Shown one piece after another: positions 41,119 through 61,069 of a stretch of DNA of 64,000 nt. Under the pieces are notes generated by a model that was not told where the DNA came from, made no database searches, and saw only the letters and a program-made list of their open reading frames with translations. Source of the DNA: an uncultured Thermoleophilia bacterium (GTDB taxonomy: Bacteria > Actinomycetota > Thermoleophilia > UBA2241). Each line of letters opens with the position of its first letter. The stretch's first letter is position 1. Where the stretch lies: NCBI GenBank assembly GCA_963709635.1, contig CAVPXA010000002.1, positions 6,858 through 70,857 of the forward strand, in the 5' to 3' direction. The translations under genes and the position numbers were made by a program.

Positions 41119-42456
41119 TCAGGCCAGATGCTCCTCCACGACCGCCACGATGCGGTCGCAGGCTGTGTCCACGTCGTCCTGCGTGGGCGCCTCGGCCATC
41201 ACGCGCACGAGCGGTTCGGTGCCGGACGGCCGCACGAGCACGCGGCCGGTGCCGTCCAGGCGGCGGGTCTCCTGCTCCACCGCCGCCCACACCGCGGCCG
41301 CGCCGTCCAGCTCGCCCAGGTCGCGCACGCGCACGTTGACGAGCTTCTGCGGCAGCCGCTCCATCACCGTCGCCGCCTCGGCCAGCGGCACGTCCATCTG
41401 TCGCAGCGCCTGCAGCAGCAGAAGCGACGTGGCGAGGCCGTCGCCGGTGGTGCTCACGTCACGGTTGATGATGTGGCCGGACTGCTCGCCGCCGAGCAGG
41501 TAGTCGCCCCTGAGCATCTCCGCCACCACGTAGCGGTCGCCGACCGCGGTGACGATCGCCTGGATGCCCTCTCGCTCCATGGCGAGATGGAAGCCCAGGT
41601 TGGTCATGACCGTGGTCACCACGGTATCGGCGCGGAGCTTGCCCTGGGCCTTCAGGTGCTTCGCGAGGATCGCGATGATGAAGTCGCCGTCGACGAGGTT
41701 GCCGGCGGCGTCGACGGCGAGCACGCGGTCGCCGTCGCCGTCGAAGGCGAGGCCGAGGTCGAAGCCGTCGTCGGCCACGACCTTCTGCAGCGCGGCCATG
41801 TGCGTGCTGCCGCAGCCCGCGTTGATGTTGGTGCCGTCGGGCCGGTCGAACAGCACCTCGACCTGCGCGCCCGACTCCTCGAGCGCCAGCGGCGCCGCCA
41901 GGTGCATGGCGCCGTTGGCACAGTCGATGGCGATCTTGATCCCGCTGAGGTCCAGCGGGATGCGCTTGACGACGTCCCAGACGTAGCCCTCGACGGCCCC
42001 CTCGAGCTGCTCGGCGCTGCCGAAGTCGGCGCCGGCGAGCGAGCTGAGGTCGTGGTGCTCGATGTGCGCCTCGATCTCGGCCTCCTCCTCGTCGCTCAGC
42101 TTGGTGCCGGCGCTCGAGAAGAACTTGATGCCGTTGTCGGCGAAGGGGTTGTGCGAGGCGCTGATGACGACGCCGGCGTCCGCGCCGCGCTGGTGCACCA
42201 GCGCGGCGAGCCCCGGCGTCGGGATCACGCCGGCGACCTCCACACGCGCGCCGCCGCTGGTGAGGCCGGCGGTGAGCGCCGCCTCGAGCATGGGGCCGCT
42301 GAGGCGCGTGTCGCGGCCGATGACGAACAGCGGATGCGGGCCGGCCTTCTGCGCGAGCACGACGGCCGCGGCGCGGCCCACCTGCACGGCGAACTCGGGC
42401 GTCAGCAGATCGCCGGCGACCCCACGGATGCCGTCCGTGCCGAAGTACTCACCCAT
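41119..42456 (-). CDS. glmM: Phosphoglucosamine mutase
   Basis: 445 aa with MGEYFGTDGIRG, the active-site block ISASHNPFADNGIKFF, FDGDGDR and GGEQSGH. Confidence 0.97.
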   Translation of the reverse strand: MGEYFGTDGIRGVAGDLLTPEFAVQVGRAAAVVLAQKAGPHPLFVIGRDTRLSGPMLEAALTAGLTSGGARVEVAGVIPTPGLAALVHQRGADAGVVISASHNPFADNGIKFFSSAGTKLSDEEEAEIEAHIEHHDLSSLAGADFGSAEQLEGAVEGYVWDVVKRIPLDLSGIKIAIDCANGAMHLAAPLALEESGAQVEVLFDRPDGTNINAGCGSTHMAALQKVVADDGFDLGLAFDGDGDRVLAVDAAGNLVDGDFIIAILAKHLKAQGKLRADTVVTTVMTNLGFHLAMEREGIQAIVTAVGDRYVVAEMLRGDYLLGGEQSGHIINRDVSTTGDGLATSLLLLQALRQMDVPLAEAATVMERLPQKLVNVRVRDLGELDGAAAVWAAVEQETRRLDGTGRVLVRPSGTEPLVRVMAEAPTQDDVDTACDRIVAVVEEHLA

Positions 42457-42844: not shown

Positions 42845-44089
42845 TCAAGGGCCCAAGGCGCCGATCGGGATGACCGCGACACCGTCGGGGCGAGTGAAGG
42901 CGTAGCCGGATCCCACGATCACGCCGAGCAGCAGAGGCTTGCCGCCCGCACTCGCATCTACCCTCCCGGCGAGCGCGAGCAGCGAAGCGGCGCCCGCATG
43001 AACCTGATTGGCGCCGAGCTTGATCTCGAACGCTGCCCAGTTCCCATCGGGCATCTCGACGACCGCGTCAACTTCGAGACCGGTGTTGTCGCGGTACTGG
43101 AGCACCTGAGCGTCCAGCGCCTGCGCGTAGACGCGCAAGTCTCGCACCACCAGCGACTCGAACAGGAAGCCGAAGAGGCCAAGGTCCTTCAGCAGTTGGG
43201 CAGGCCCGATGCGCAGCGCCGCAACGGACAGTGACGGATCGACGAAGTGGCGCTTCACGCCACTGCGCATGACGGACTTGGAGCGCAAACGAGGCGACCA
43301 TGGCGGCTGGTCCTCGATGATCATGAGCCTGTCGAGTGCATCCAGGTATTCGCGTACGGTCTCGCGGTCGAGCGGGCCATCGACACCTCCCGTGTCGCCA
43401 GCCAGGGTGACGATTGAGGCGTACGTGGCCACGTTACGTCCCAGTGAGCGCAGGAGACGCCCGATCCGATTGGGATCCCTGCGTGGCGCGATGCGACCCA
43501 CGTCGACGCGTCTGATCTCGTCGAGGTAGTCGCGGTTGGCGCGGAGCGATTGCTCGGCCGGCCCAGAGTGGCCAGGCCATCCTCCGACCGCAACTCGCTC
43601 CGCGATGTCGGCGACCGCCAACCCGGGATCGGGGCATCTGACAGCTGCACCCGTGAGGAGTCGCGCCAACGACAGCTCACCGTTGGAGTGCCCCGTCTCG
43701 AAGAGGCTCATCGGCCGCATGCGCAGGCGAGAGATCCTGCCCGCACCCGTGTGTCTGGTGGCGTCGTCGGCCGGGACGGCCGAGCCGGTGAGGATGAACT
43801 GCGCCGGCTTGCCGCGATCGTCCACCGCTCGCCGCACATGGTTCCAGATGTTCGGCTCGAGCTGCCACTCGTCGATGAGGCGAGGTGCAGCGCCGTCGAG
43901 GACGAGGGAAGGATCGACGGCGGCGGCTTCCCGCGCCGTGGTGTCGATGTCAAGCAGGACCTCGCTGACCGCGGCACGCCGGGCCGTCTCGGTCTTGCCA
44001 CAGGCTTTGGCCCCCTCGATGAGCACGGCCCCGCTTGCGCTCAACCGTGAGATCAGCTCGTCGTCGACGACTCGATTGATGTAGGTCAT
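42845..44089 (-). CDS. AAA-type ATPase with DUF4143 C-terminal domain
   Basis: 414-aa ORF with P-loop GAKACGKTETARR, LIDEWQ (Walker B-like), and the C-terminal part KRHFVDPSL...FLFESLVVRDLRVYA...YRDNTGLEVDAVVE. Local composition is visibly less GC-rich than the flanks. Confidence 0.8.
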   Translation of the reverse strand: MTYINRVVDDELISRLSASGAVLIEGAKACGKTETARRAAVSEVLLDIDTTAREAAAVDPSLVLDGAAPRLIDEWQLEPNIWNHVRRAVDDRGKPAQFILTGSAVPADDATRHTGAGRISRLRMRPMSLFETGHSNGELSLARLLTGAAVRCPDPGLAVADIAERVAVGGWPGHSGPAEQSLRANRDYLDEIRRVDVGRIAPRRDPNRIGRLLRSLGRNVATYASIVTLAGDTGGVDGPLDRETVREYLDALDRLMIIEDQPPWSPRLRSKSVMRSGVKRHFVDPSLSVAALRIGPAQLLKDLGLFGFLFESLVVRDLRVYAQALDAQVLQYRDNTGLEVDAVVEMPDGNWAAFEIKLGANQVHAGAASLLALAGRVDASAGGKPLLLGVIVGSGYAFTRPDGVAVIPIGALGP

Positions 44090-45397: not shown

Positions 45398-45691
45398 TCA
45401 GCCGACCGGCGTGGCGCCGGCCTGCTCGTGGAACGACAGCGCGCCGACCGCGCAGCCGATCCCTCCGACCACAGAGCGGAGGGTCTCGTCCTCGAGCGCC
45501 GCCGCGCCTGCTTCACCGGCGGCGGCGTGCAGGTCCTCGTCGCTCACCGCGAAGCCCTCGGCCGCCGCGAGCTCACAGAGCGCGCGCGGACGGGCGGCCT
45601 CCTCGAGGCCGCTCAGCGCGCGGGCCTTCTCCTGCAGCTCCTCGTCGGTCTCCAGCCGGGCGAAGAACGCCTTCAGGTCCTCTGCCGACAT
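45398..45691 (-). CDS. Nif11-type leader RiPP precursor peptide (copy 2)
   Basis: ORF 45398..45808 trimmed to the ATG after GAGAGGAG. Leader: [77 protein letters not shown]. Core: [20 protein letters not shown]. Confidence 0.8.
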
Positions 45692-45719
45692 GCCGCTCCT
45701 CTCGTCCGGCGGCGTCCGC

Positions 45720-46022
45720 TCACCCGCGTGCGGTCGCGTCGCCCTTGGGATTCCCCGCCAGGAAGCCGGGCTCCACACACGAGACGCCGCCCGCGGCCGC
45801 GACCCCACGCAGCGTCTCGTCGTCGAGCGCGGCCGCTGCCGGGCCGTCGGCGGCCGCAGCCAGATCGTCGGCGGTCACCGAGAGGCCGAGCTCCGCCGCC
45901 AGCGCGCACAGCGCGGCGTCGCGAGCGTCCCCCGGCTCGCCGCTCAGCGCCCGCGCCCTCTGCTGCAACTCCGCGTCGGCCTCCAGCCTCGCGAAGAAGG
46001 TCCTCAGGTCCTCTGCCGACAT
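45720..46022 (-). CDS. Nif11-type leader RiPP precursor peptide (copy 1)
   Basis: 100-aa ORF after a GGAGGAG RBS. Leader: MSAEDLRTFFARLEADAELQQRARALSGEPGDARDAALCALAAELGLSVTADDLAAAADGPAAAALDDETLRGVAAAGG. Core: VSCVEPGFLAGNPKGDATARG. It starts 21 nt downstream of the rSAM gene stop. Confidence 0.8.
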   Translation of the reverse strand: MSAEDLRTFFARLEADAELQQRARALSGEPGDARDAALCALAAELGLSVTADDLAAAADGPAAAALDDETLRGVAAAGGVSCVEPGFLAGNPKGDATARG

Positions 46023-46043
46023 CGCTCCTCCCGTCTGTCGCCG

Positions 46044-47441
46044 TCAGCCGCGGCCGGCGATCGCCGCCAGCCGCCGCCGGTAGGGACTCCTGTACAGCTC
46101 GCACGCGGCCGGGTCACGCCCCAGCAGGTCGCCCGTCGCGGCGTAGGCGAGCGCCCAGCACCCCGCGCCGCACTCGCCGAACTCGGCGCACGCCGCGCAC
46201 TCCGGATTGTGCTCCAGGATCCGCGCCTTGGTCACCGTTACGGCCGCACGCAGGGAGTCGTCGTCCCATGCCTCGGAGAGTTCCGTGGCGAGCAGCGACG
46301 GCATCGCGTCCTGGAGCGGCGTGTCGATGAACCGCGGGCAGAGGATGAGCCGTCCGTCCGGCATCACGTAGACGGTCTCCTGGAGCAGCGCCCCGCAGTG
46401 GAGGTCCTCAGGCGAGCAGCGGTGGACGGGGCCGACCGGCGGCACGAACCCGCCCGGCGCCCCGGAGTACATGCCGCACAACGTGATCAGGTACGGGCGT
46501 CCGAGATCGAGCCAGCGGCGCAGGATCGCCGCCGCGGCCTCAGCCTGCGCATCGAGAGACAACGCGGTCGGCGCGCCGACCCAGCAGCCCACGGGGATCG
46601 GCGCGCTCACGTGCCATCCCGTCACGCCGAGCTCGGCCATCAGACCGGTCGCGGCGACGATGCCGTCCCGGGTCTCGGCGTCGAGACTGCTCGTCACGCT
46701 CACGCGGAAGCCGGCGGCCACGGCCCGGCGCGCCGCTTCCAGCGCCGAGCCTTCGGCGCCGGCACGGCCGCGCATGCCGTCGTGGGCGCCGACGCCGTCG
46801 TAGCTCAGGTGGATGACGGGGTCGGCGCCCAGCTCCCGCAGACGAACCAGCGCGTCGTCGTCCAGCAGCAGGCCGTTGGTGGAGATCTGGTGCACGCCGA
46901 TGCGCCGCTCGATCAGCCTGCCGATGAGCTCCCAGATGTCGGCGCGCAGCAGCGGCTCGCCGCCGGTGAGGTGGACGCGCTGCACGCCGGCGCGCTCGAG
47001 CTGGTCAACGATGCGCAGCATGTCCGCGGTCGGAAGCTCGCCGTACCGCGCCTCCGGGGCCTCCATGTAACAGTGCCGGCAGGCGAGGTTGCAGCGCCCG
47101 GTGACCGCCCAGTTGGCGAACGCCAGATAGCGGTTGGCGGCCTGCCGGTGTCGCTGCCGCGGGTCGAGCTGCGTCCCCCGCGGGCACTCCAGGGCCATGC
47201 CCTTCTCGATCATGAGGTCGAGCGTCGCGCGGTGCGCGGGGAGGAAGAACGGCGAGGTGAAGTCGGTCGCGCCGTCGCAGCTTCGCGCGACCCAGGCGGC
47301 CGCCGGCGTGAGCGCCGGGTCCTCGCCCGTACGCCAGTTGACGAGGACCGCCGGACGGTCGCTGTAGCCGCGGAGGTGCCAGTCGGGCGCGAGCACCGCG
47401 TAGCGGCCGCTCGCGCCTTCGCTCGGGGACATCGGCGTCAC
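46044..47441 (-). CDS. Radical SAM/SPASM-domain peptide maturase with an N-terminal RRE-like region
   Basis: CX3CX2C at GRCNLACRHCY. SPASM signature: CGALLQETVYVMPDGRLILC (CX13GX4C) and CAACAEFGECGAGC (CX2CX5CX3C). N-terminal PqqD-like stretch: YAVLAPDWHLRGY...LTPAAAWVARSCDGATDF. Start is GTG 47441 (after GAGGAG) or ATG 47432. Confidence 0.9.
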   Translation of the reverse strand: MTPMSPSEGASGRYAVLAPDWHLRGYSDRPAVLVNWRTGEDPALTPAAAWVARSCDGATDFTSPFFLPAHRATLDLMIEKGMALECPRGTQLDPRQRHRQAANRYLAFANWAVTGRCNLACRHCYMEAPEARYGELPTADMLRIVDQLERAGVQRVHLTGGEPLLRADIWELIGRLIERRIGVHQISTNGLLLDDDALVRLRELGADPVIHLSYDGVGAHDGMRGRAGAEGSALEAARRAVAAGFRVSVTSSLDAETRDGIVAATGLMAELGVTGWHVSAPIPVGCWVGAPTALSLDAQAEAAAAILRRWLDLGRPYLITLCGMYSGAPGGFVPPVGPVHRCSPEDLHCGALLQETVYVMPDGRLILCPRFIDTPLQDAMPSLLATELSEAWDDDSLRAAVTVTKARILEHNPECAACAEFGECGAGCWALAYAATGDLLGRDPAACELYRSPYRRRLAAIAGRG

Positions 47442-47496
47442 GCACTCTCCTCGGTCGGCGGGGCCTCCCACCGCCGGGCGGCTCCGGCGCCCGGCG

Positions 47497-48303
47497 TCAG
47501 TCGAGACGCCGTATCCTGATCTCGTCGCCGGCGTCGAGCCCCAGCACCTCGGCCGCCGACCCGTTGTTGACCGCCACCGACGCCTGGCCGTAGCTGTCGA
47601 TGAGCACGACGATGTCGCTGCGGCGCACAGACTGGAAGGTGCGCGCCACGCTCGCGAGGTAGCGCTCGTCGCCGGTGAGGAGCTCGACGTGGCCGGTGAG
47701 CCCGGCCTTCTCCAGGTCGCGGGCGCGGATGTTGAGCGCGACGTTGCCGAACCGGTCGACGAGCACCGCGACCGCCGTCAGGCCGTCGCGGTGCCGGCGG
47801 GGCTCCGGGTAGTCGATACGGTCGAGGTGGTCGGCGTCCAGCTCGGCTCCGACCGCGTCCAGCGAGAGGCCGGCCGCCAGACGGGCCGCGGCCGGCGCGA
47901 ATACGTCGCGGCCGTGGAAGGTGGCGGAGAGCGGCATGAGCCACAGCTCCTGGTTGCTGAGCTCGTAGGCGGCGGCGACCCCGCCGTCGAGGTCGGCGGC
48001 GTGCATGAGCAGCCCGTTGTCCGGGCCGACGAAGAGCCGATCGCCGTGGCTGCGCAGGGCGATCGGCCGCCGCGGCCCGCCCACGCCCGGGTCGACGACC
48101 GCCAGGATCACCGCCCGGACCGGCATGTAGGGCAGCGTGTTGCGCAGCACCACCGCCCCGGCGAGCACGTCGCGCTCCGGCAGCCCGTGCGTGACGTCGA
48201 TGACCCGGACGTCCGGCGCCAGCCGGGCGATGACCGCACGGCACACGCCGGCGAAGTCGTCGGTGTAGCCGTAGTCGCTGAAGAAGCAGATGGGCCTGTC
48301 CAT
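47497..48303 (-). CDS. DUF62 family SAM hydrolase (SAM hydroxide adenosyltransferase / halogenase-like)
   Basis: ORF 47497..48717 trimmed to MDRPICFFSDYGYTDDFAGVC. Conserved blocks: IDVTHG, VVDPGVG, GPDNG, ATFHGRDVFAPAAARLA. Confidence 0.88.
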   Translation of the reverse strand: MDRPICFFSDYGYTDDFAGVCRAVIARLAPDVRVIDVTHGLPERDVLAGAVVLRNTLPYMPVRAVILAVVDPGVGGPRRPIALRSHGDRLFVGPDNGLLMHAADLDGGVAAAYELSNQELWLMPLSATFHGRDVFAPAAARLAAGLSLDAVGAELDADHLDRIDYPEPRRHRDGLTAVAVLVDRFGNVALNIRARDLEKAGLTGHVELLTGDERYLASVARTFQSVRRSDIVVLIDSYGQASVAVNNGSAAEVLGLDAGDEIRIRRLD

Positions 48304-48590: not shown

Positions 48591-49430
48591 TCAGCGCGAG
48601 CGGGCGTCCTCCGCGATGGCCGAGACGAGGCCCGCGGCCGTGTACTCCCGGGCCTCCACCGCCACCGGCAGTCCCAGGCCGCGCAGCGTCTCGCTGGTGA
48701 TCGGGCCGATGGAGCAAAGGCGGGCGCCGGCCAGCCGCTCGACGAGCGGGGTCCCGGCGCGGCCCGCGCCGGCAGCCACAGCCTCCAGAAGGCCGGCGAG
48801 CCGCTTGGCGGTGCTCGCCGAGGTGAACGTGATGTAGTCTGCCGCCTCCACGCGCGCCGCCGGCTCGGCGAGCTCCTCCACGGCGACGGTGTCGTAGATG
48901 TGGAGCACGTCGACCACGGCTCCCCGCGCGCGCAGCGTCTCAGGGAGCACGTCGCGCGCGTCGGCCGCGCACGGGATGAGCACACGGGCGCCGGCGGCGG
49001 CCGCCTCCGTGCCCTCGAGCGCATCCGCGAGCCCCTCAGCGACGTACTCGTCGGGCACCAGGTGGCACGAGAGGCCGTGCTTCTCGAGGGCCGCGGCGGT
49101 AGCGGGCCCGACGGCGGCGAGCACGGGCCCGGGCGGCATGCCGCCGTCCTCCGTGCCGCGCGCCAGGTAGCCGGCCCACACGCGCACGGCGTTGGTGCTC
49201 GTGAACACCACGAGCTGGTAGGCGGCGAGCTCCCGCAGGACGGCCGCGACCTCTTCGTCGAGGGGTCGCGGCTCGATACGGATGGTGGGCACCACGAGCA
49301 CCTCGGCGCCGAGCGCCTCGAGCGGGCGCGCGAGTGAGGCCGCCTGCTCGCGCGGCCGGGTGACGACGACGGTGCGGCCGGCCAGCACGCGGTCCGGCGA
49401 GGACGCCGTGTCCGGGCCGGACGAGGTCAC
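48591..49430 (-). CDS. hemD: Uroporphyrinogen-III synthase
   Basis: Tail of ORF 48591..50843 (RTVVVTRPREQAASLARPLEALGAEVLVVPTI...VFTSTNAV...ITFTSAST). GTG 49430 overlaps the hemC stop (GTGA). Confidence 0.85.
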   Translation of the reverse strand: MTSSGPDTASSPDRVLAGRTVVVTRPREQAASLARPLEALGAEVLVVPTIRIEPRPLDEEVAAVLRELAAYQLVVFTSTNAVRVWAGYLARGTEDGGMPPGPVLAAVGPATAAALEKHGLSCHLVPDEYVAEGLADALEGTEAAAAGARVLIPCAADARDVLPETLRARGAVVDVLHIYDTVAVEELAEPAARVEAADYITFTSASTAKRLAGLLEAVAAGAGRAGTPLVERLAGARLCSIGPITSETLRGLGLPVAVEAREYTAAGLVSAIAEDARSR

Positions 49431-50399
49431 GGCGTGCGGATCTCGTCCAGGATGCCGCCGGCCCCGCGCTCGAGCAGCTCGGCGGCGAGGAGCACGCCGA
49501 GGCCCTCGGGGTCGCCGGCGGGCCGCGCCTGCGCGCCGCGCACCGAGCGCGCGCCGTCGAGCGAGCCCACGTAGGCGGCGAGCGCCAGCGTGCCGGCGGC
49601 GCTCTCGCCGGCCTCCCAGAGAGCGTGCGCGGCGATCGGCACCTGGCAGCCACCCTCCAGCGTGCCCAGGAGCGCCCGCTCCGCCTTGACGCAGAGCGCC
49701 GTCTGCGGGTGGTCGAGCGCCGCCCTGATCTCGAGCAGCCGCGGGTGGTCGGCGCGCGCCTCGATGGCGAGCGCGCCCTGGCCCACGGCCGGCAGCATCT
49801 CGTCGAACGCGAAGGCGAACCCGACAACCTCGGAGCGGCCGAGGCGCGAGAGCCCCGCGGCCGCGAGGATCGTCCCCGTCATCTCCTCCTCGACGAGCTT
49901 GCGCAGGCGCGTCTCGACGTTGCCGCGGATGTCGACCACGTCGAGGTCCGGGCGCAGCGCCAGGAGCTGCGAGCGCCGGCGCAGGCTCGAGCGTGCCCAC
50001 GCGGGCGCCGTGTGGCACATCGTCCAGAGTGAGCGGCCCGTCGACGGACGCGCGGCCCTCGAGCAGCGCCGGGTTGGGCACGAACACGTCGCGCACGTCC
50101 TCGCGCTCGGTGAAGGCGATGATGTCCAGCCCCTCGGGCACGGCGGTGGGCATGTCCTTGGCGGAGTGCACGGCCACGTCGATGCGGTCCTCGAGCAGTG
50201 CGCTCTCGAGCTCCTTGGTGAAGAGTCCCTTGTCGCCGATCATGGCCAGCGGCGCGTCGAGGATCCTGTCGCCCTTGGTGCTGATGACCTCTATCTCCAC
50301 GCGCAGGCCCGGGTGGCGCTCCGCCACGCGGTCGCGCACCCACTCCGCCTGCACGAGCGCGAGGCGGGAGCCGCGGGAGCCGATCCGGATCAGGTCCAT
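49427..50399 (-). CDS. hemC: Hydroxymethylbilane synthase (frameshifted as sequenced)
   Basis: MDLIRIGSRGSRLALVQAEWV...ISTKGD...FTKELE...HSAKDMP...GARVGT (frame of ORF 48591..50843) continues as SSLRRRSQLLALRPDLDVVDIRGNVETRL...PAVGQGALAIE (ORF 49427..50020). The break is near 49991-49994. Length is 3n+1. Confidence 0.9.
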
Positions 50400-51844
50400 C
50401 AAGCGTCCTCCGTTCCGGTGCCGCGCAGGTGGTGGACGGTGCCGCCGGCGGAGGGCGCGGGCGGCTCCTCGGCCTCCTGGGGCTGGGTGGTGGTCGAGGA
50501 CGGCGCCGGCTGCGCCGGCGCCTCGCCGGGCGCCGCCTCGCCGGGCGCCGCCTCGCCGGACGGGGCCTCGCCCGCTTCCCCCGTCTCGAGGTCGAAGAGC
50601 GTACGCACGGCGTCCACGTACAGGTAGCACTGGTCGCGCCCCGCGACCTCCTTCATCTTCACGGTCGGCACGTGCAGGATCTTGTTGACGATGCTCGTGG
50701 TGAGCATGTCCACCCGCGCCCGCTGCTCCTCGGTGAGGTCGCTGAGGCGGTTGCCCAGGCGGTCGAGCTCGCTGCGGCGGATGTCCTCCACTGCCTCCCG
50801 CAGCATGGCGATGGTCGGCACCACCTCGAGGCTGCGCAGCCATTCGTTCATGCCCCCGAGCTCCTGCTCGACGATGCGCTCGGCGTGCGCCGCGTCCTTC
50901 TCGCGCTCGTGGCGGTTGTGCTCCACCACGTGCTGGAGGTCGTCGATGTCGTAGAGGTAGGCGTCGCGCACACGGTTGATCTCCGGGTCGAGGTCACGCG
51001 GCACGGCGATGTCGATGAGGAACATGGGGCGGTGCTTGCGGCGCTTGAAGGCGCGCTCCACCGTCTCCCGGGTGATCACGTAGTGCGGTGCGGAGGTCGA
51101 GCTGATGACGATGTCGGCGCGGGAGAGGTGCTGCTCGAGGTCCTCGAAGCGCACCGCCTCGCCGCCGACGCGCTGCGCGAGCTCCAGCGAGGTGTCGAGC
51201 GTGCGGTTGGCCACCAGGATCTTCTCGATGCCGTGAGCCTTGAGGTGCGTCGCCGTGAGCTCGCTGGTCTCGCCGGCGCCGACGATGAGCACGGTGTGGT
51301 CGCGCAGCTTGCCGAACACCTGCAGGGCGAGCTCGACGGCGGCCGAGCTGACGCTCACGGGCCGCTCGCCGATGGTGGTCTCGGTGCGCACGCGCTTGCC
51401 CACTTCGAGCGCGTGCCGGAACAGCCGGTTGAAGACCACGGCCGTGCAGCCGCCGTCACAGGCCATCTGGTAGGCGGCCTTGAGCTGGGCGACGATCTGC
51501 GCCTCGCCGACGACCATGCTGTCGAGGCTCGAGGTGACGCGGAAGAGATGCGAGATGGCGCCGTCGCCGGAGTAGCTGTAGAGCGACGGCTCGAGCTCTC
51601 CCGGCTCGACGCCGGCGTGCCGCGCCAGGTGCTGCAGCGCCGCCTGGCGCGCCGCGAGCGAGTCGCGCCCGTACAGGTACAGCTCGGTGCGGTTGCAGGT
51701 GCTGAGCGCGACGACCTCGCAGGCCACGCCCTCCTCCAGGAGTTCCTGGCTCAGACGCAGCGCGGCCTCCTCGTCCAGGGCAAGGCGCTCGCGCAGCTCC
51801 AGCGAGGCGGTCTTGTGGGAGATGCCGGCGACGACGACGTGCAT
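50399..51844 (-). CDS. hemA: Glutamyl-tRNA reductase with a Pro/Ala/Glu-rich C-terminal tail
   Basis: 481 aa with VVAGISHKTASLELRE, LSTCNRTELY and GAGETSEL. The tail is GEAGEAPSGEAAPGEAAPGEAPAQPAP.... Confidence 0.95.
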   Translation of the reverse strand: MHVVVAGISHKTASLELRERLALDEEAALRLSQELLEEGVACEVVALSTCNRTELYLYGRDSLAARQAALQHLARHAGVEPGELEPSLYSYSGDGAISHLFRVTSSLDSMVVGEAQIVAQLKAAYQMACDGGCTAVVFNRLFRHALEVGKRVRTETTIGERPVSVSSAAVELALQVFGKLRDHTVLIVGAGETSELTATHLKAHGIEKILVANRTLDTSLELAQRVGGEAVRFEDLEQHLSRADIVISSTSAPHYVITRETVERAFKRRKHRPMFLIDIAVPRDLDPEINRVRDAYLYDIDDLQHVVEHNRHEREKDAAHAERIVEQELGGMNEWLRSLEVVPTIAMLREAVEDIRRSELDRLGNRLSDLTEEQRARVDMLTTSIVNKILHVPTVKMKEVAGRDQCYLYVDAVRTLFDLETGEAGEAPSGEAAPGEAAPGEAPAQPAPSSTTTQPQEAEEPPAPSAGGTVHHLRGTGTEDA

Positions 51845-60088: not shown

Positions 60089-61069
60089 TCACCCTCCGAT
60101 CTGGGACATCGACCGCTCGTTGGCCAGGGCCTCGCTGCAGCGGTCGAAGGTCTTGCCGGCGACGGCCTTGCCGATCTCCGCGCGCAGGCCGTCTGGGTCC
60201 CCGAGCAGCGGCCTGATGTTGACCTCGCGGCCGGAGAACAGGCAGGTGCGCAGCCGGCCGTCGGCCGTGAGGCGCAGGCGGTTGCAGGTCTCGCAGAAGT
60301 GGTCGGACACGCCGGCGATGAAGCCGATGGTGCCGCGCGCGCCCGCGACCTTCCAGTACTGCGCCGGCCCGTGGCCGTAGGGCCCGTCGTGGCCGATGAG
60401 CACGTACTCCTGCATGAGCCGGCGCAGCACGTCCCCCGCGGGGAGCAGGCGCCCCTCGCCGCCGAGGTCCTCGTCTCCGGCGATGCGGCGGTCGAGCGGC
60501 ATGAACTCGATGAAGCGCACGTGCACTTCGTACTCGCGCGTGAGCGCGACGAAGGCCTCCAGCTCCTCCTCCACGCCGGGCAGGAGCAGGGTGTTGATCT
60601 TGATGGGTGCGAACCCGGCGGAGAAGGCGGCGTCGATGCCGGCGAGCGTGTCCTCGAGGTGGCCGCCGCGGGTGATGCGCGCGAACCGGTCCGCGTCGAG
60701 ACTGTCGAGGCTGATGTTGACCCGGTGCAGGCCGTTGGCTGCCAGCTCGCCGGCGTACCTGGGGAGCAGCAGACCGTTCGTCGTGAGCGAGATGTCGTGG
60801 ATGCCGCTGGTGCGGCTGATCATGCCGACGAAGTCGGCGCAGCCGGTCCTCACCAGCGGCTCGCCGCCGGTGATACGCACCTTGGAGATGCCTGCGTCGG
60901 CGGCGGCGCGCGCGAACACGGCGAGCTCTTCGTAGCTGAGGATCTCGCCGTGGTCGCGCGCCTTGATCCCCTCCTCCGGCATGCAGTACGTGCAGCGGAG
61001 GTTGCAGCGGTCGGTGATGGAGAGGCGCAGGTAGTCGACCCGGCCCTGTTCGCGCGGCGTGGCGTCCAT
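60089..61069 (-). CDS. moaA: GTP 3',8-cyclase MoaA (radical SAM)
   Basis: 326 aa with [21 protein letters not shown] (CX3CX2C), ITGGEPL, and the C-terminal double Gly ...SQIGG. Confidence 0.96.

Follow-up and report, generated by a model that had tools for sequence, protein, structure and literature searches.

The question raised by this locus is what is made by three closely spaced genes that stand among housekeeping genes in a 64-kb stretch of DNA (the window; contig CAVPXA010000002.1) from an uncultured soil actinobacterium of the Thermoleophilia. The genes lie on the minus strand between 45398 and 47441 (all coordinates are positions in the window) and encode, in order, a radical S-adenosylmethionine (SAM) enzyme and two small peptides, A1 and A2. 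It is very probable that together they form a real, functional cassette for a peptide that ribosomes synthesise and that is modified post-translationally (RiPP). The fuller statement, that this is a minimal and self-contained RiPP cassette with a thioether-forming step, has about an even chance of being right when taken as a whole. A preliminary description of this DNA had proposed a radical SAM/SPASM maturase with an N-terminal RiPP recognition element (RRE) and tandem Nif11-leader precursors, not assignable to any named RiPP class. That proposal survived every test run; the observation is real, and each of its statements about the sequence checked out.

The open reading frame (ORF) listing and a reading of the sequence both confirm the dense packing that had been described, with gaps of 21 nucleotides (nt) between the enzyme gene and A1 (46023-46043) and 28 nt between A1 and A2 (45692-45719). 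The maturase gene starts with a GTG at 47441, with GAGGAG (47452-47447) five bases ahead; an in-frame ATG at 47432 is an alternative start, and a GTG at 47471 opens a longer ORF. Each precursor has its own GGAGG-type ribosome-binding site (RBS), GGGAGGAG at 46032-46025 for A1 and GAGAGGAG at 45703-45696 for A2, as had been claimed. The GC content at third codon positions is 0.90-0.93 for all three ORFs, equal to that of the adjoining housekeeping genes, and therefore all three look like genuine coding sequence. The flanking genes, of the housekeeping kind that had been described, are hemA, hemC, hemD and the SAM_HAT (DUF62) gene on one side and rplM and rpsI on the other. An Rfam scan gave no match. 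The features of the locus are collected in Table 1.

Table 1. Features of the three-gene cassette, with positions in the 64-kb window
Feature	Position	Strand	Basis or comment
Radical SAM/SPASM peptide maturase, 465 amino acids	46044-47441	-	ORF; PF04055 E = 4e-23
N-terminal RRE-like (PqqD-like) leader-binding domain, residues ~12-100	47142-47408	-	Predicted fold
CX3CX2C motif, C117/C121/C124, within CNLACRHC	47070-47093	-	SAM-binding [4Fe-4S] cluster; read from sequence
SPASM region, seven Cys (C349, C368, C415, C418, C424, C428, C447)	46101-46397	-	Two auxiliary clusters
Precursor A1, 100 amino acids	45720-46022	-	ORF; PF07862
A1 leader (residues 1-79, ending ...GVAAAGG) and core (residues 80-100, VSCVEPGFLAGNPKGDATARG)	45723-45785 (core DNA)	-	
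Precursor A2, 97 amino acids	45398-45691	-	ORF; PF07862 and TIGR03798
A2 leader (residues 1-77, ending ...SVVGG) and core (residues 78-97)	45401-45460 (core DNA)	-	
Insert of ~2,074 bp, three genes and their RBSs, absent from locus L133	45405-47478	-	blastn

The radical SAM motif CNLACRHC and a complete SPASM cysteine signature, both reported earlier, are plain in the maturase. The latter consists of CX13GX4C (C349, G363 and C368) and CX2CX5CX3C (C415, C418, C424 and C428), followed by C447. All ten cluster-ligand cysteines, three in the radical SAM motif and seven in the SPASM region, are invariant in 33 homologs, and the GGE motif is kept, as are all catalytic cysteines. The Pfam Radical_SAM model scores 82.8 bits against a cut-off of 29.5. 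The Pfam SPASM model reaches 15.1 bits, under its cut-off of 21.5, so it is the arrangement of the cysteines, together with the fold, and not this model, that carries the SPASM assignment. A protein identical to the maturase (P0001) is present in a public collection.

The AlphaFold2 model of the maturase (pLDDT 92.4, pTM 0.90) finds its best PDB matches among RiPP maturases with an RRE-rSAM-SPASM/twitch architecture. SkfB (E = 2e-18), SuiB, PqqE and CteB are the top Foldseek matches, and TigE, ChlB, anSME and the epimerase EpeE are also significant. SuiB gives the best full-length superposition, N-terminal RRE included (~480 aligned columns, TM 0.62). The N-terminal stretch had been called PqqD-like. 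Pfam PqqD has no match in the maturase, and it is the predicted fold that carries this part of the claim. The first 105 residues modelled alone (pLDDT 88) are predicted to form strands at 14-17, 21-25 and 32-35, helices at 46-54 and 68-79, and a strand at 83-86. Their best matches are the lasso-peptide B1 RRE 6jx3_B (E = 7.6e-3, prob 1.0, TMt 0.59), the N-terminus of SuiB, and TbiB1. These E-values are weak, with 7.6e-3 at best, yet the ranking is consistent, and a predicted RRE fold for the N-terminus is supported by the structural model rather than by any sequence model.

Both small peptides pass the Pfam Nif11 model (PF07862, cut-off 23.8), A1 with 33.2 bits and A2 with 39.2. With NCBIfam TIGR03798 (cut-off 32.3), A2 is above the threshold at 42.3 and A1 below it at 27.8, so that the description of both as Nif11-type precursors holds by the Pfam model and, for A2 alone, by the NCBIfam model as well. 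A search with a single precursor sequence gave 3 matches only; a profile built from ten precursors of the close clade retrieved 48 peptides. The leader consensus, M-S-x-E-D-L-x-A-F-F-A-R-L-E ... L-E-D-E-x-L-R-x-V-V-G-G, is conserved. In an alignment (A3) and the 48 further peptides, the double-glycine end of the leader (...L-R-x-V-V-G-G) is followed by a hypervariable core. An A2 ortholog (P0121) that is 84% identical has the core ISCAVGVMSFYEQAGAGPVG.

Within the clade, cysteine is the sole invariant residue of the core in alignment A3. The cores are of two types. The first, which includes A1 and A2, is short (16-23 residues) with a single Cys; the second is long, with three to five G-C-G-x-S-[VL]-G-[AYFWK] repeats and a ...GCG ending. 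In 27 single-Cys cores compiled from the close clade, the cysteine is at core position 2-5. A glycine follows it in all 27, four residues on (Cys+4) in 24 of them and three residues on (Cys+3) in the other three. Proline is at Cys+3 in 14 of the 27, a hydrophobic or aromatic residue usually comes after the conserved Gly (+5: F, A, I, L or Y), and 18 cores have a C-terminal Gly. The A1 core conforms to the clade motif C-x3-G-Phi, and both cores keep the motif. The A1 core has a single Cys, Cys82, and the A2 core likewise one, Cys80; A1 and A2 have no Tyr or Trp, and their cores end in ...ARG and ...PVG.

Relatives of the maturase are widespread. A word-indexed search found ~50 full-length relatives, at least 562 loci with them came out of a pattern scan in which each GTDB species was represented by one genome, and phmmer against 1.84 billion representatives clustered at 50% identity returned 279 clusters at E <= 1e-30; a scan of metagenome contigs with the maturase gave two relatives only. 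Members occur in Actinomycetota, Planctomycetota, Verrucomicrobiota and Pseudomonadota, and in many Bacillota of the gut and rumen. The pairing of enzyme and peptide was assessed with a hidden Markov model (HMM) built from A1 and A2 and iterated over the small ORFs of 87 loci (86 fetched and the window). Nif11-like double-glycine peptides are present in 63 of the 87, nearly always directly adjoining the enzyme and often in tandem. In the close clade (59-71% identity), between one and four Nif11 peptides adjoin the enzyme at every locus, namely L004, L089, L090, L091, L092, L173, L174 and the contig of P0005. With the window's peptides passing the Pfam model and the enzyme homologs adjoining small peptides in 63 of 87 loci, the expectation of the preliminary description that the two belong together has held. 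The association of enzyme and peptide has been kept in many phyla.

Some other members of the family have features of their own. Three proteins, P0174 (983 amino acids, of which residues 497-946 are the maturase part), P0192 (671) and P0202 (760), have large additional regions fused at the N- or C-terminus. Distant relatives of the enzyme in Bacillota and Coriobacteriia of the gut and rumen (L043, L049, L058, L063, L065, L067 and L082) are accompanied by precursors with a strikingly conserved core, D-W-x3-G-C-A-A-T-V-E-x-G-S-x-C-W followed by CxxC pairs, and this group has the appearance of a well-defined RiPP subfamily of its own. Upstream of the cassette in L004 (4608-4871 and 5664-5975) and L008 (2830-2988), small ORFs with a TetR gene alongside have another short leader-like motif (...ELADDELEGVTGG...) and may encode a second type of double-glycine peptide.

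From these features a mechanism can be proposed. The leader, of ~77 residues and Nif11 type, would be bound by the N-terminal RRE of the enzyme, as its fold and the conserved gene pairing suggest. The radical SAM/SPASM domain would cleave SAM to give a 5'-deoxyadenosyl radical, and hydrogen would be abstracted from the core of 20-21 residues. The invariant Cys would then be joined to a nearby carbon in a thioether of the sactionine or ranthionine type. Finally, the leader would be cut after the double glycine by a protease or exporter encoded elsewhere, giving a monocyclic peptide of ~20 residues. That the core cysteine is the residue modified or cross-linked is probable. That the link is a thioether is a more tentative proposal, made by analogy and falling somewhat short of even; it is favoured because a fused RRE, a full SPASM region and an invariant donor-type Cys near a conserved Gly are together the signature of sacti- and ranthipeptide systems. 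The most economical guess for the ring is a small one inside Cys-x2-(Pro)-Gly, with the alpha carbon of Gly as an attractive acceptor, although the choice of the glycine at +4 for this role is doubtful. Alternatively, a Pro-Gly turn may bring the Cys up to a hydrophobic residue farther downstream. With PapB-type enzymes the Cys becomes joined to the carbon that is alpha to a carboxylate, the C-terminus included (PMC12373016). Many cores of the clade have Asp or Glu at Cys+1 or Cys+2, or a terminal Gly; the acidic residue is absent in A2 and in several others.

Several points weigh against this mechanism. The maturase fold matches enzymes that form carbon-carbon cross-links, such as SuiB, as well as thioether formers. 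The PDB matches made by sequence are confined to the radical SAM core, and by sequence comparison no characterised homolog appears near enough for its chemistry to be transferred. The scores for StsB, the Nif11 splicease TIGR04103 and MftC are all far under their cut-offs. The loci with a radical SAM enzyme of 40% identity or more speak for the mechanism, since Cys is present in all of their candidate ORFs for Nif11-type peptides, a few of these ORFs looking frameshifted or mis-delimited. At loci under 40% identity 17 of 97 candidate peptides have none, which suggests that the wider enzyme family is probably polyfunctional. A scan for promoters and terminators detected none, and there is no protease or exporter in the window or in ~10 close-clade loci.

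The same evidence bears on the possibility that this is a genuine RiPP cassette with other chemistry: a C-C or C-O cross-link to the hydrophobic or aromatic residue after the Gly, an epimerisation, or a conversion of the Cys of the thiooxazole or formylglycine type. SuiB, which forms a Lys-Trp C-C bond, PqqE, ChlB, TigE, anSME and EpeE are all significant structural matches, enzymes for such cross-linking, epimerisation and Cys conversion fit the fold equally well, the +5 residue is usually aromatic or hydrophobic (F, A, I, L or Y), and the distant relatives with Cys-free cores would fit. In addition, multi-repeat cores of the same clade contain A-Y-G and G-Y-G, the type of site used by Nif11 spliceases (PMC11002830). 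However, the Cys is the one invariant core residue of the clade, which points to its participation, A1 and A2 have no Tyr or Trp, and the type of residue at Cys+5 is not conserved; for a splicease in particular the score is 77 against 725 bits and the separate RRE partner is absent. Non-thioether chemistry is on balance rather unlikely, and a thioether to the core cysteine is retained as the preferred proposal.

Assignment to a named family was sought with NCBIfam (release June 2026), applying equivalog cut-offs to the maturase and 24 diverse relatives. None of these proteins reached any equivalog cut-off, including those for SCIFF and AlbA. The best matches of the maturase, in the radical SAM core only, are NirJ (104 against 515 bits) and MftC (87.1 against 265), with TIGR04103 (77.4 against 725) and the sactisynthase StsB, NF045574 (70.3 against 625), also under their cut-offs. 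A literature search, with most subscription journals outside its coverage, found reviews only and no paper on a characterised member. As far as found, the enzyme family has no curated name, structure or characterised member.

Four assignments to known systems were rejected. As a splicease, the enzyme falls far under TIGR04103, the A1 and A2 cores have no Tyr, and the RRE is fused where a separate PlpY would be expected. As a mycofactocin enzyme it scores far under MftC, the cores end in ...ARG and ...PVG rather than Val-Tyr, and the cassette has no MftB-like gene. A heme enzyme of the NirJ/AhbD kind is not indicated either, with scores far under the cut-offs and the partner features missing. 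For a class II lanthipeptide, no LanM-sized or LanC-like gene was found among the window ORFs scanned.

The nearest known systems share parts of the design. The sacti- and ranthipeptide systems (of the SkfB, CteB, PapB, StsB and GggB type) are alike in having an N-terminal RRE with a radical SAM core and a SPASM or twitch domain, in being a small unit of enzyme and precursor, and in their Cys cores; among the structural matches SkfB ranks first, and CteB is significant too. Relatives of the maturase that are 41-45% identical, in Heliobacteriaceae (L014) and Micromonosporaceae (L018), have C-x3-C-x3-C-G-x2-L-G-x-[YW]-x-G-[RK]-Q cores, and we take their C-x3-C-x3-C part to recall hairpin sactipeptides such as thuricin CD. 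Unlike these systems, the cassette scores far below the family cut-offs (StsB, above), has a long Nif11 leader instead of a short one, has no linked protease or exporter, and has one Cys per core, with Cys-x2-Pro-Gly; the thioether here is only predicted. Prochlorosin-type class II lanthipeptides also have Nif11 leaders, a GG cleavage motif and hypervariable cores, whereas the window has no LanM, the A1 and A2 cores are without the Ser/Thr-Cys pairs needed for lanthionines, and the maturase is a radical SAM enzyme. The streptide enzyme SuiB/StrB, although the best full-length structural match, is only 14-15% identical; A1 and A2 do not have the streptide Lys-Trp pair, and the leader type and genomic context differ. 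The spliceotide system PlpX/PlpY and the proteusin-type epimerases PoyD and OspD (PMC11002830, PMC10849128) share a Nif11-type double-glycine leader and a radical SAM (SPASM) maturase beside several paralogous precursors. They are unlike the cassette in that PlpX/PlpY act at an X-Tyr-Gly site, not found in A1 or A2, use a separate RRE protein, have their own family model, TIGR04103, and belong to cyanobacteria rather than Thermoleophilia.

The position of the cassette shows it to be a recent or accessory insertion, a point that was beyond the reach of the preliminary description. GlmM (41119-42456) is 84-95% identical to that of many metagenome-assembled genomes (MAGs) of uncultured Thermoleophilia, and the window is therefore placed in this class of the Actinomycetota. 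The gene order hemD-SAM_HAT-rplM-rpsI-glmM, or the portion of it present on the contig, is kept in ~43 of 55 fetched glmM loci, and the cassette is in none of them; the SAM_HAT-rplM spacer of these cassette-free relatives is only ~110-200 bp. In the closest genome, L133 (Thermoleophilia MAG CAWCAH010000012; SAM_HAT 96% and RpsI 99% identical), that spacer is uninterrupted. By blastn, window 47700-47479 aligns with L133 4769-4989 and window 45404-45205 with L133 4988-5190, the two being contiguous in L133, and the intervening window sequence is therefore a precise insertion, with boundaries that are fuzzy by ~20 nt in the GC-rich spacer. The GC content of the insert is host-like, 74.3% against 71.1% for the window. 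No integrase or transposase gene is in the insert, and no convincing direct repeat was seen at its junctions.

The adjoining hemD-SAM_HAT gap is occupied in other relatives. L004 and L090 have one cassette each there. L173 (690-3395) has one enzyme followed by four precursors, mixing single-Cys and multi-Cys cores, and L174 (2709-6773) has two tandem enzymes, 66% identical to each other, interleaved with three precursors. Between hemD and SAM_HAT in L116 (5374-5742) is a 122-residue ORF with the SPASM part only (61% identity, E = 4e-31 with the family HMM), which is a decayed remnant of a cassette. The window's own layout, SAM_HAT-radical SAM-Nif11-Nif11-rplM, recurs on the P0005 contig with a 70% identical enzyme, and here the enzyme gene overlaps SAM_HAT by 11 nt, which suggests that the cassette is transcribed by read-through from SAM_HAT. 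In the close relatives L091 and L092 the cassette is among toxin-antitoxin genes. This is thus an accessory cassette, taken up, multiplied and lost again at a hot spot in this part of the genome, with none, one or two cassettes and a remnant.

The remnant raises the question of whether the window's cassette is itself a non-functional hitch-hiker heading for decay. The decayed piece of this enzyme in the adjoining gap of L116 is consistent with such a fate, as is the score of A1 below the TIGR03798 cut-off, and the window's hemC carries a frameshift, so the assembly or the genome has lesions. However, all three ORFs are intact, each with an RBS, the catalytic Cys and the GGE motif are retained, and both cores keep the clade motif. 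The P0005 contig is independent, and its same layout and two Nif11 peptides indicate long persistence under constraint. Decay is very improbable, and a functional cassette remains by far the better explanation.

No C39 peptidase, ABC exporter, LanM or YcaO is in the 64-kb window, where the ABC ATPases are of importer type (Opp-type, TOBE) or CcmA, and the earlier remark that no LanM, cyclodehydratase or C39/ABC exporter is nearby was borne out across the window. In more distant members of the family, true C39-ABC exporters are within 5 kb of the enzyme (L043 and L082), or ABC exporters are accompanied by an S8 protease, a subtilase (L001, L016 and L019). In the prochlorosin system (ProcM and ProcT), too, the processing and export genes are located away from the precursors. 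The simplest assumption is that processing of the Thermoleophilia peptides is encoded in trans.

Retention of the peptide in the cell, where it would serve as a redox factor or peptide-derived cofactor in the manner of mycofactocin or PQQ, or else as a small protein carrying a modification, would also explain the absence of a protease and exporter from the window and the ~10 close-clade loci. The housekeeping setting, with SAM_HAT abutted in seven loci and overlapped in one, and the presence of MftC and PqqE among the better family and fold matches fit this too. Against it are the sporadic distribution, with ~43 syntenic species lacking the cassette and one decayed remnant, the variable copy number (one or two enzymes, one to four precursors), the hypervariable cores, the double-glycine leaders and the C39-ABC exporters of distant members. 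Such sporadic, variable and exporter-linked traits are typical of secreted bacteriocin-like RiPPs and not of cofactors, the pattern of gain, duplication and loss likewise argues against a cofactor role, and SAM_HAT, as a core gene, occurs whether or not a cassette is present. An intracellular role is improbable, and a peptide processed in trans is preferred.

A functional tie of the cassette to SAM_HAT and the heme genes was rejected, as their order is kept in the ~43 relatives without a cassette and both are core genes of the lineage. The cassette does abut SAM_HAT (window 47497-48300), on either side, in seven loci of Thermoleophilia type (the window, L004, L090, L173, L174, L116 and the P0005 contig); a functional link between the SAM-cleaving SAM_HAT and a radical SAM cassette is unproven.

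Other genes of the window deserve a brief record. A gene for a 414-residue AAA_14/DUF4143 ATPase (42845-44089, minus strand) is between rpsI and glmM. With tblastn no counterpart of it was found in any of the 55 related Thermoleophilia loci, whose rpsI-glmM gaps are ~0.2-2.4 kb; this gap looks like a second accessory insertion site beside the ribosomal-protein operon. The hemC gene (~49985-49995, minus strand) is divided over two frames, its N-terminal part in ORF 48591-50843 and its C-terminal part in ORF 49427-50020, with a 1-nt insertion relative to L133 (GGCACGCTCGAGCC against GGCACG-TCCAGC) that is either an assembly indel or a true frameshift. The window's second radical SAM gene (60089-61069, minus strand) is MoaA, with Radical_SAM and Mob_synth_C domains, and is unrelated to the cassette.

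The preliminary description overstated the novelty of a Nif11 leader paired with a radical SAM enzyme, which is an established theme. Nif11-associated radical SAM spliceases and epimerases have already been characterised (PMC11002830), and orphan families of such architecture are numerous in surveys, for example in a compendium of ~15,000 proteins (PMC10288494). No current view is overturned. What is specific here is the unnamed and structurally uncharacterised enzyme family, the very simple one-Cys core with Cys-x2-Pro-Gly, the consistent absence of processing genes in the Thermoleophilia clade, and the clean documentation of the cassette as an insertion.

There is a smaller possibility, itself unlikely, that the cross-link is one so far undescribed for RiPPs, such as a ring of five residues from Cys to Gly(+4), or a link other than a thioether for which the Cys-x2-Pro-Gly turn is the template, and so defines a new RiPP class. 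If this were true, the new class would spread as a 2-kb module of enzyme and precursors that lacks a protease, exporter or immunity gene of its own, and it would lodge repeatedly beside SAM_HAT in Thermoleophilia. For tests of the chemistry, the substrate found in the Thermoleophilia branch is unusually simple, with one enzyme and a 20-residue core that has one Cys and one conserved Gly. This simplicity makes the chemistry easy to solve and, if it proved new, would offer a compact tool for leader-guided macrocyclisation. As a lead to a natural product the cassette is real but of a familiar kind, its chemistry being a prediction, and it is not a new principle. Its polymorphic presence and absence, with a hot spot and a remnant, make it a clean natural case of RiPP cassette flux in an uncultured lineage.

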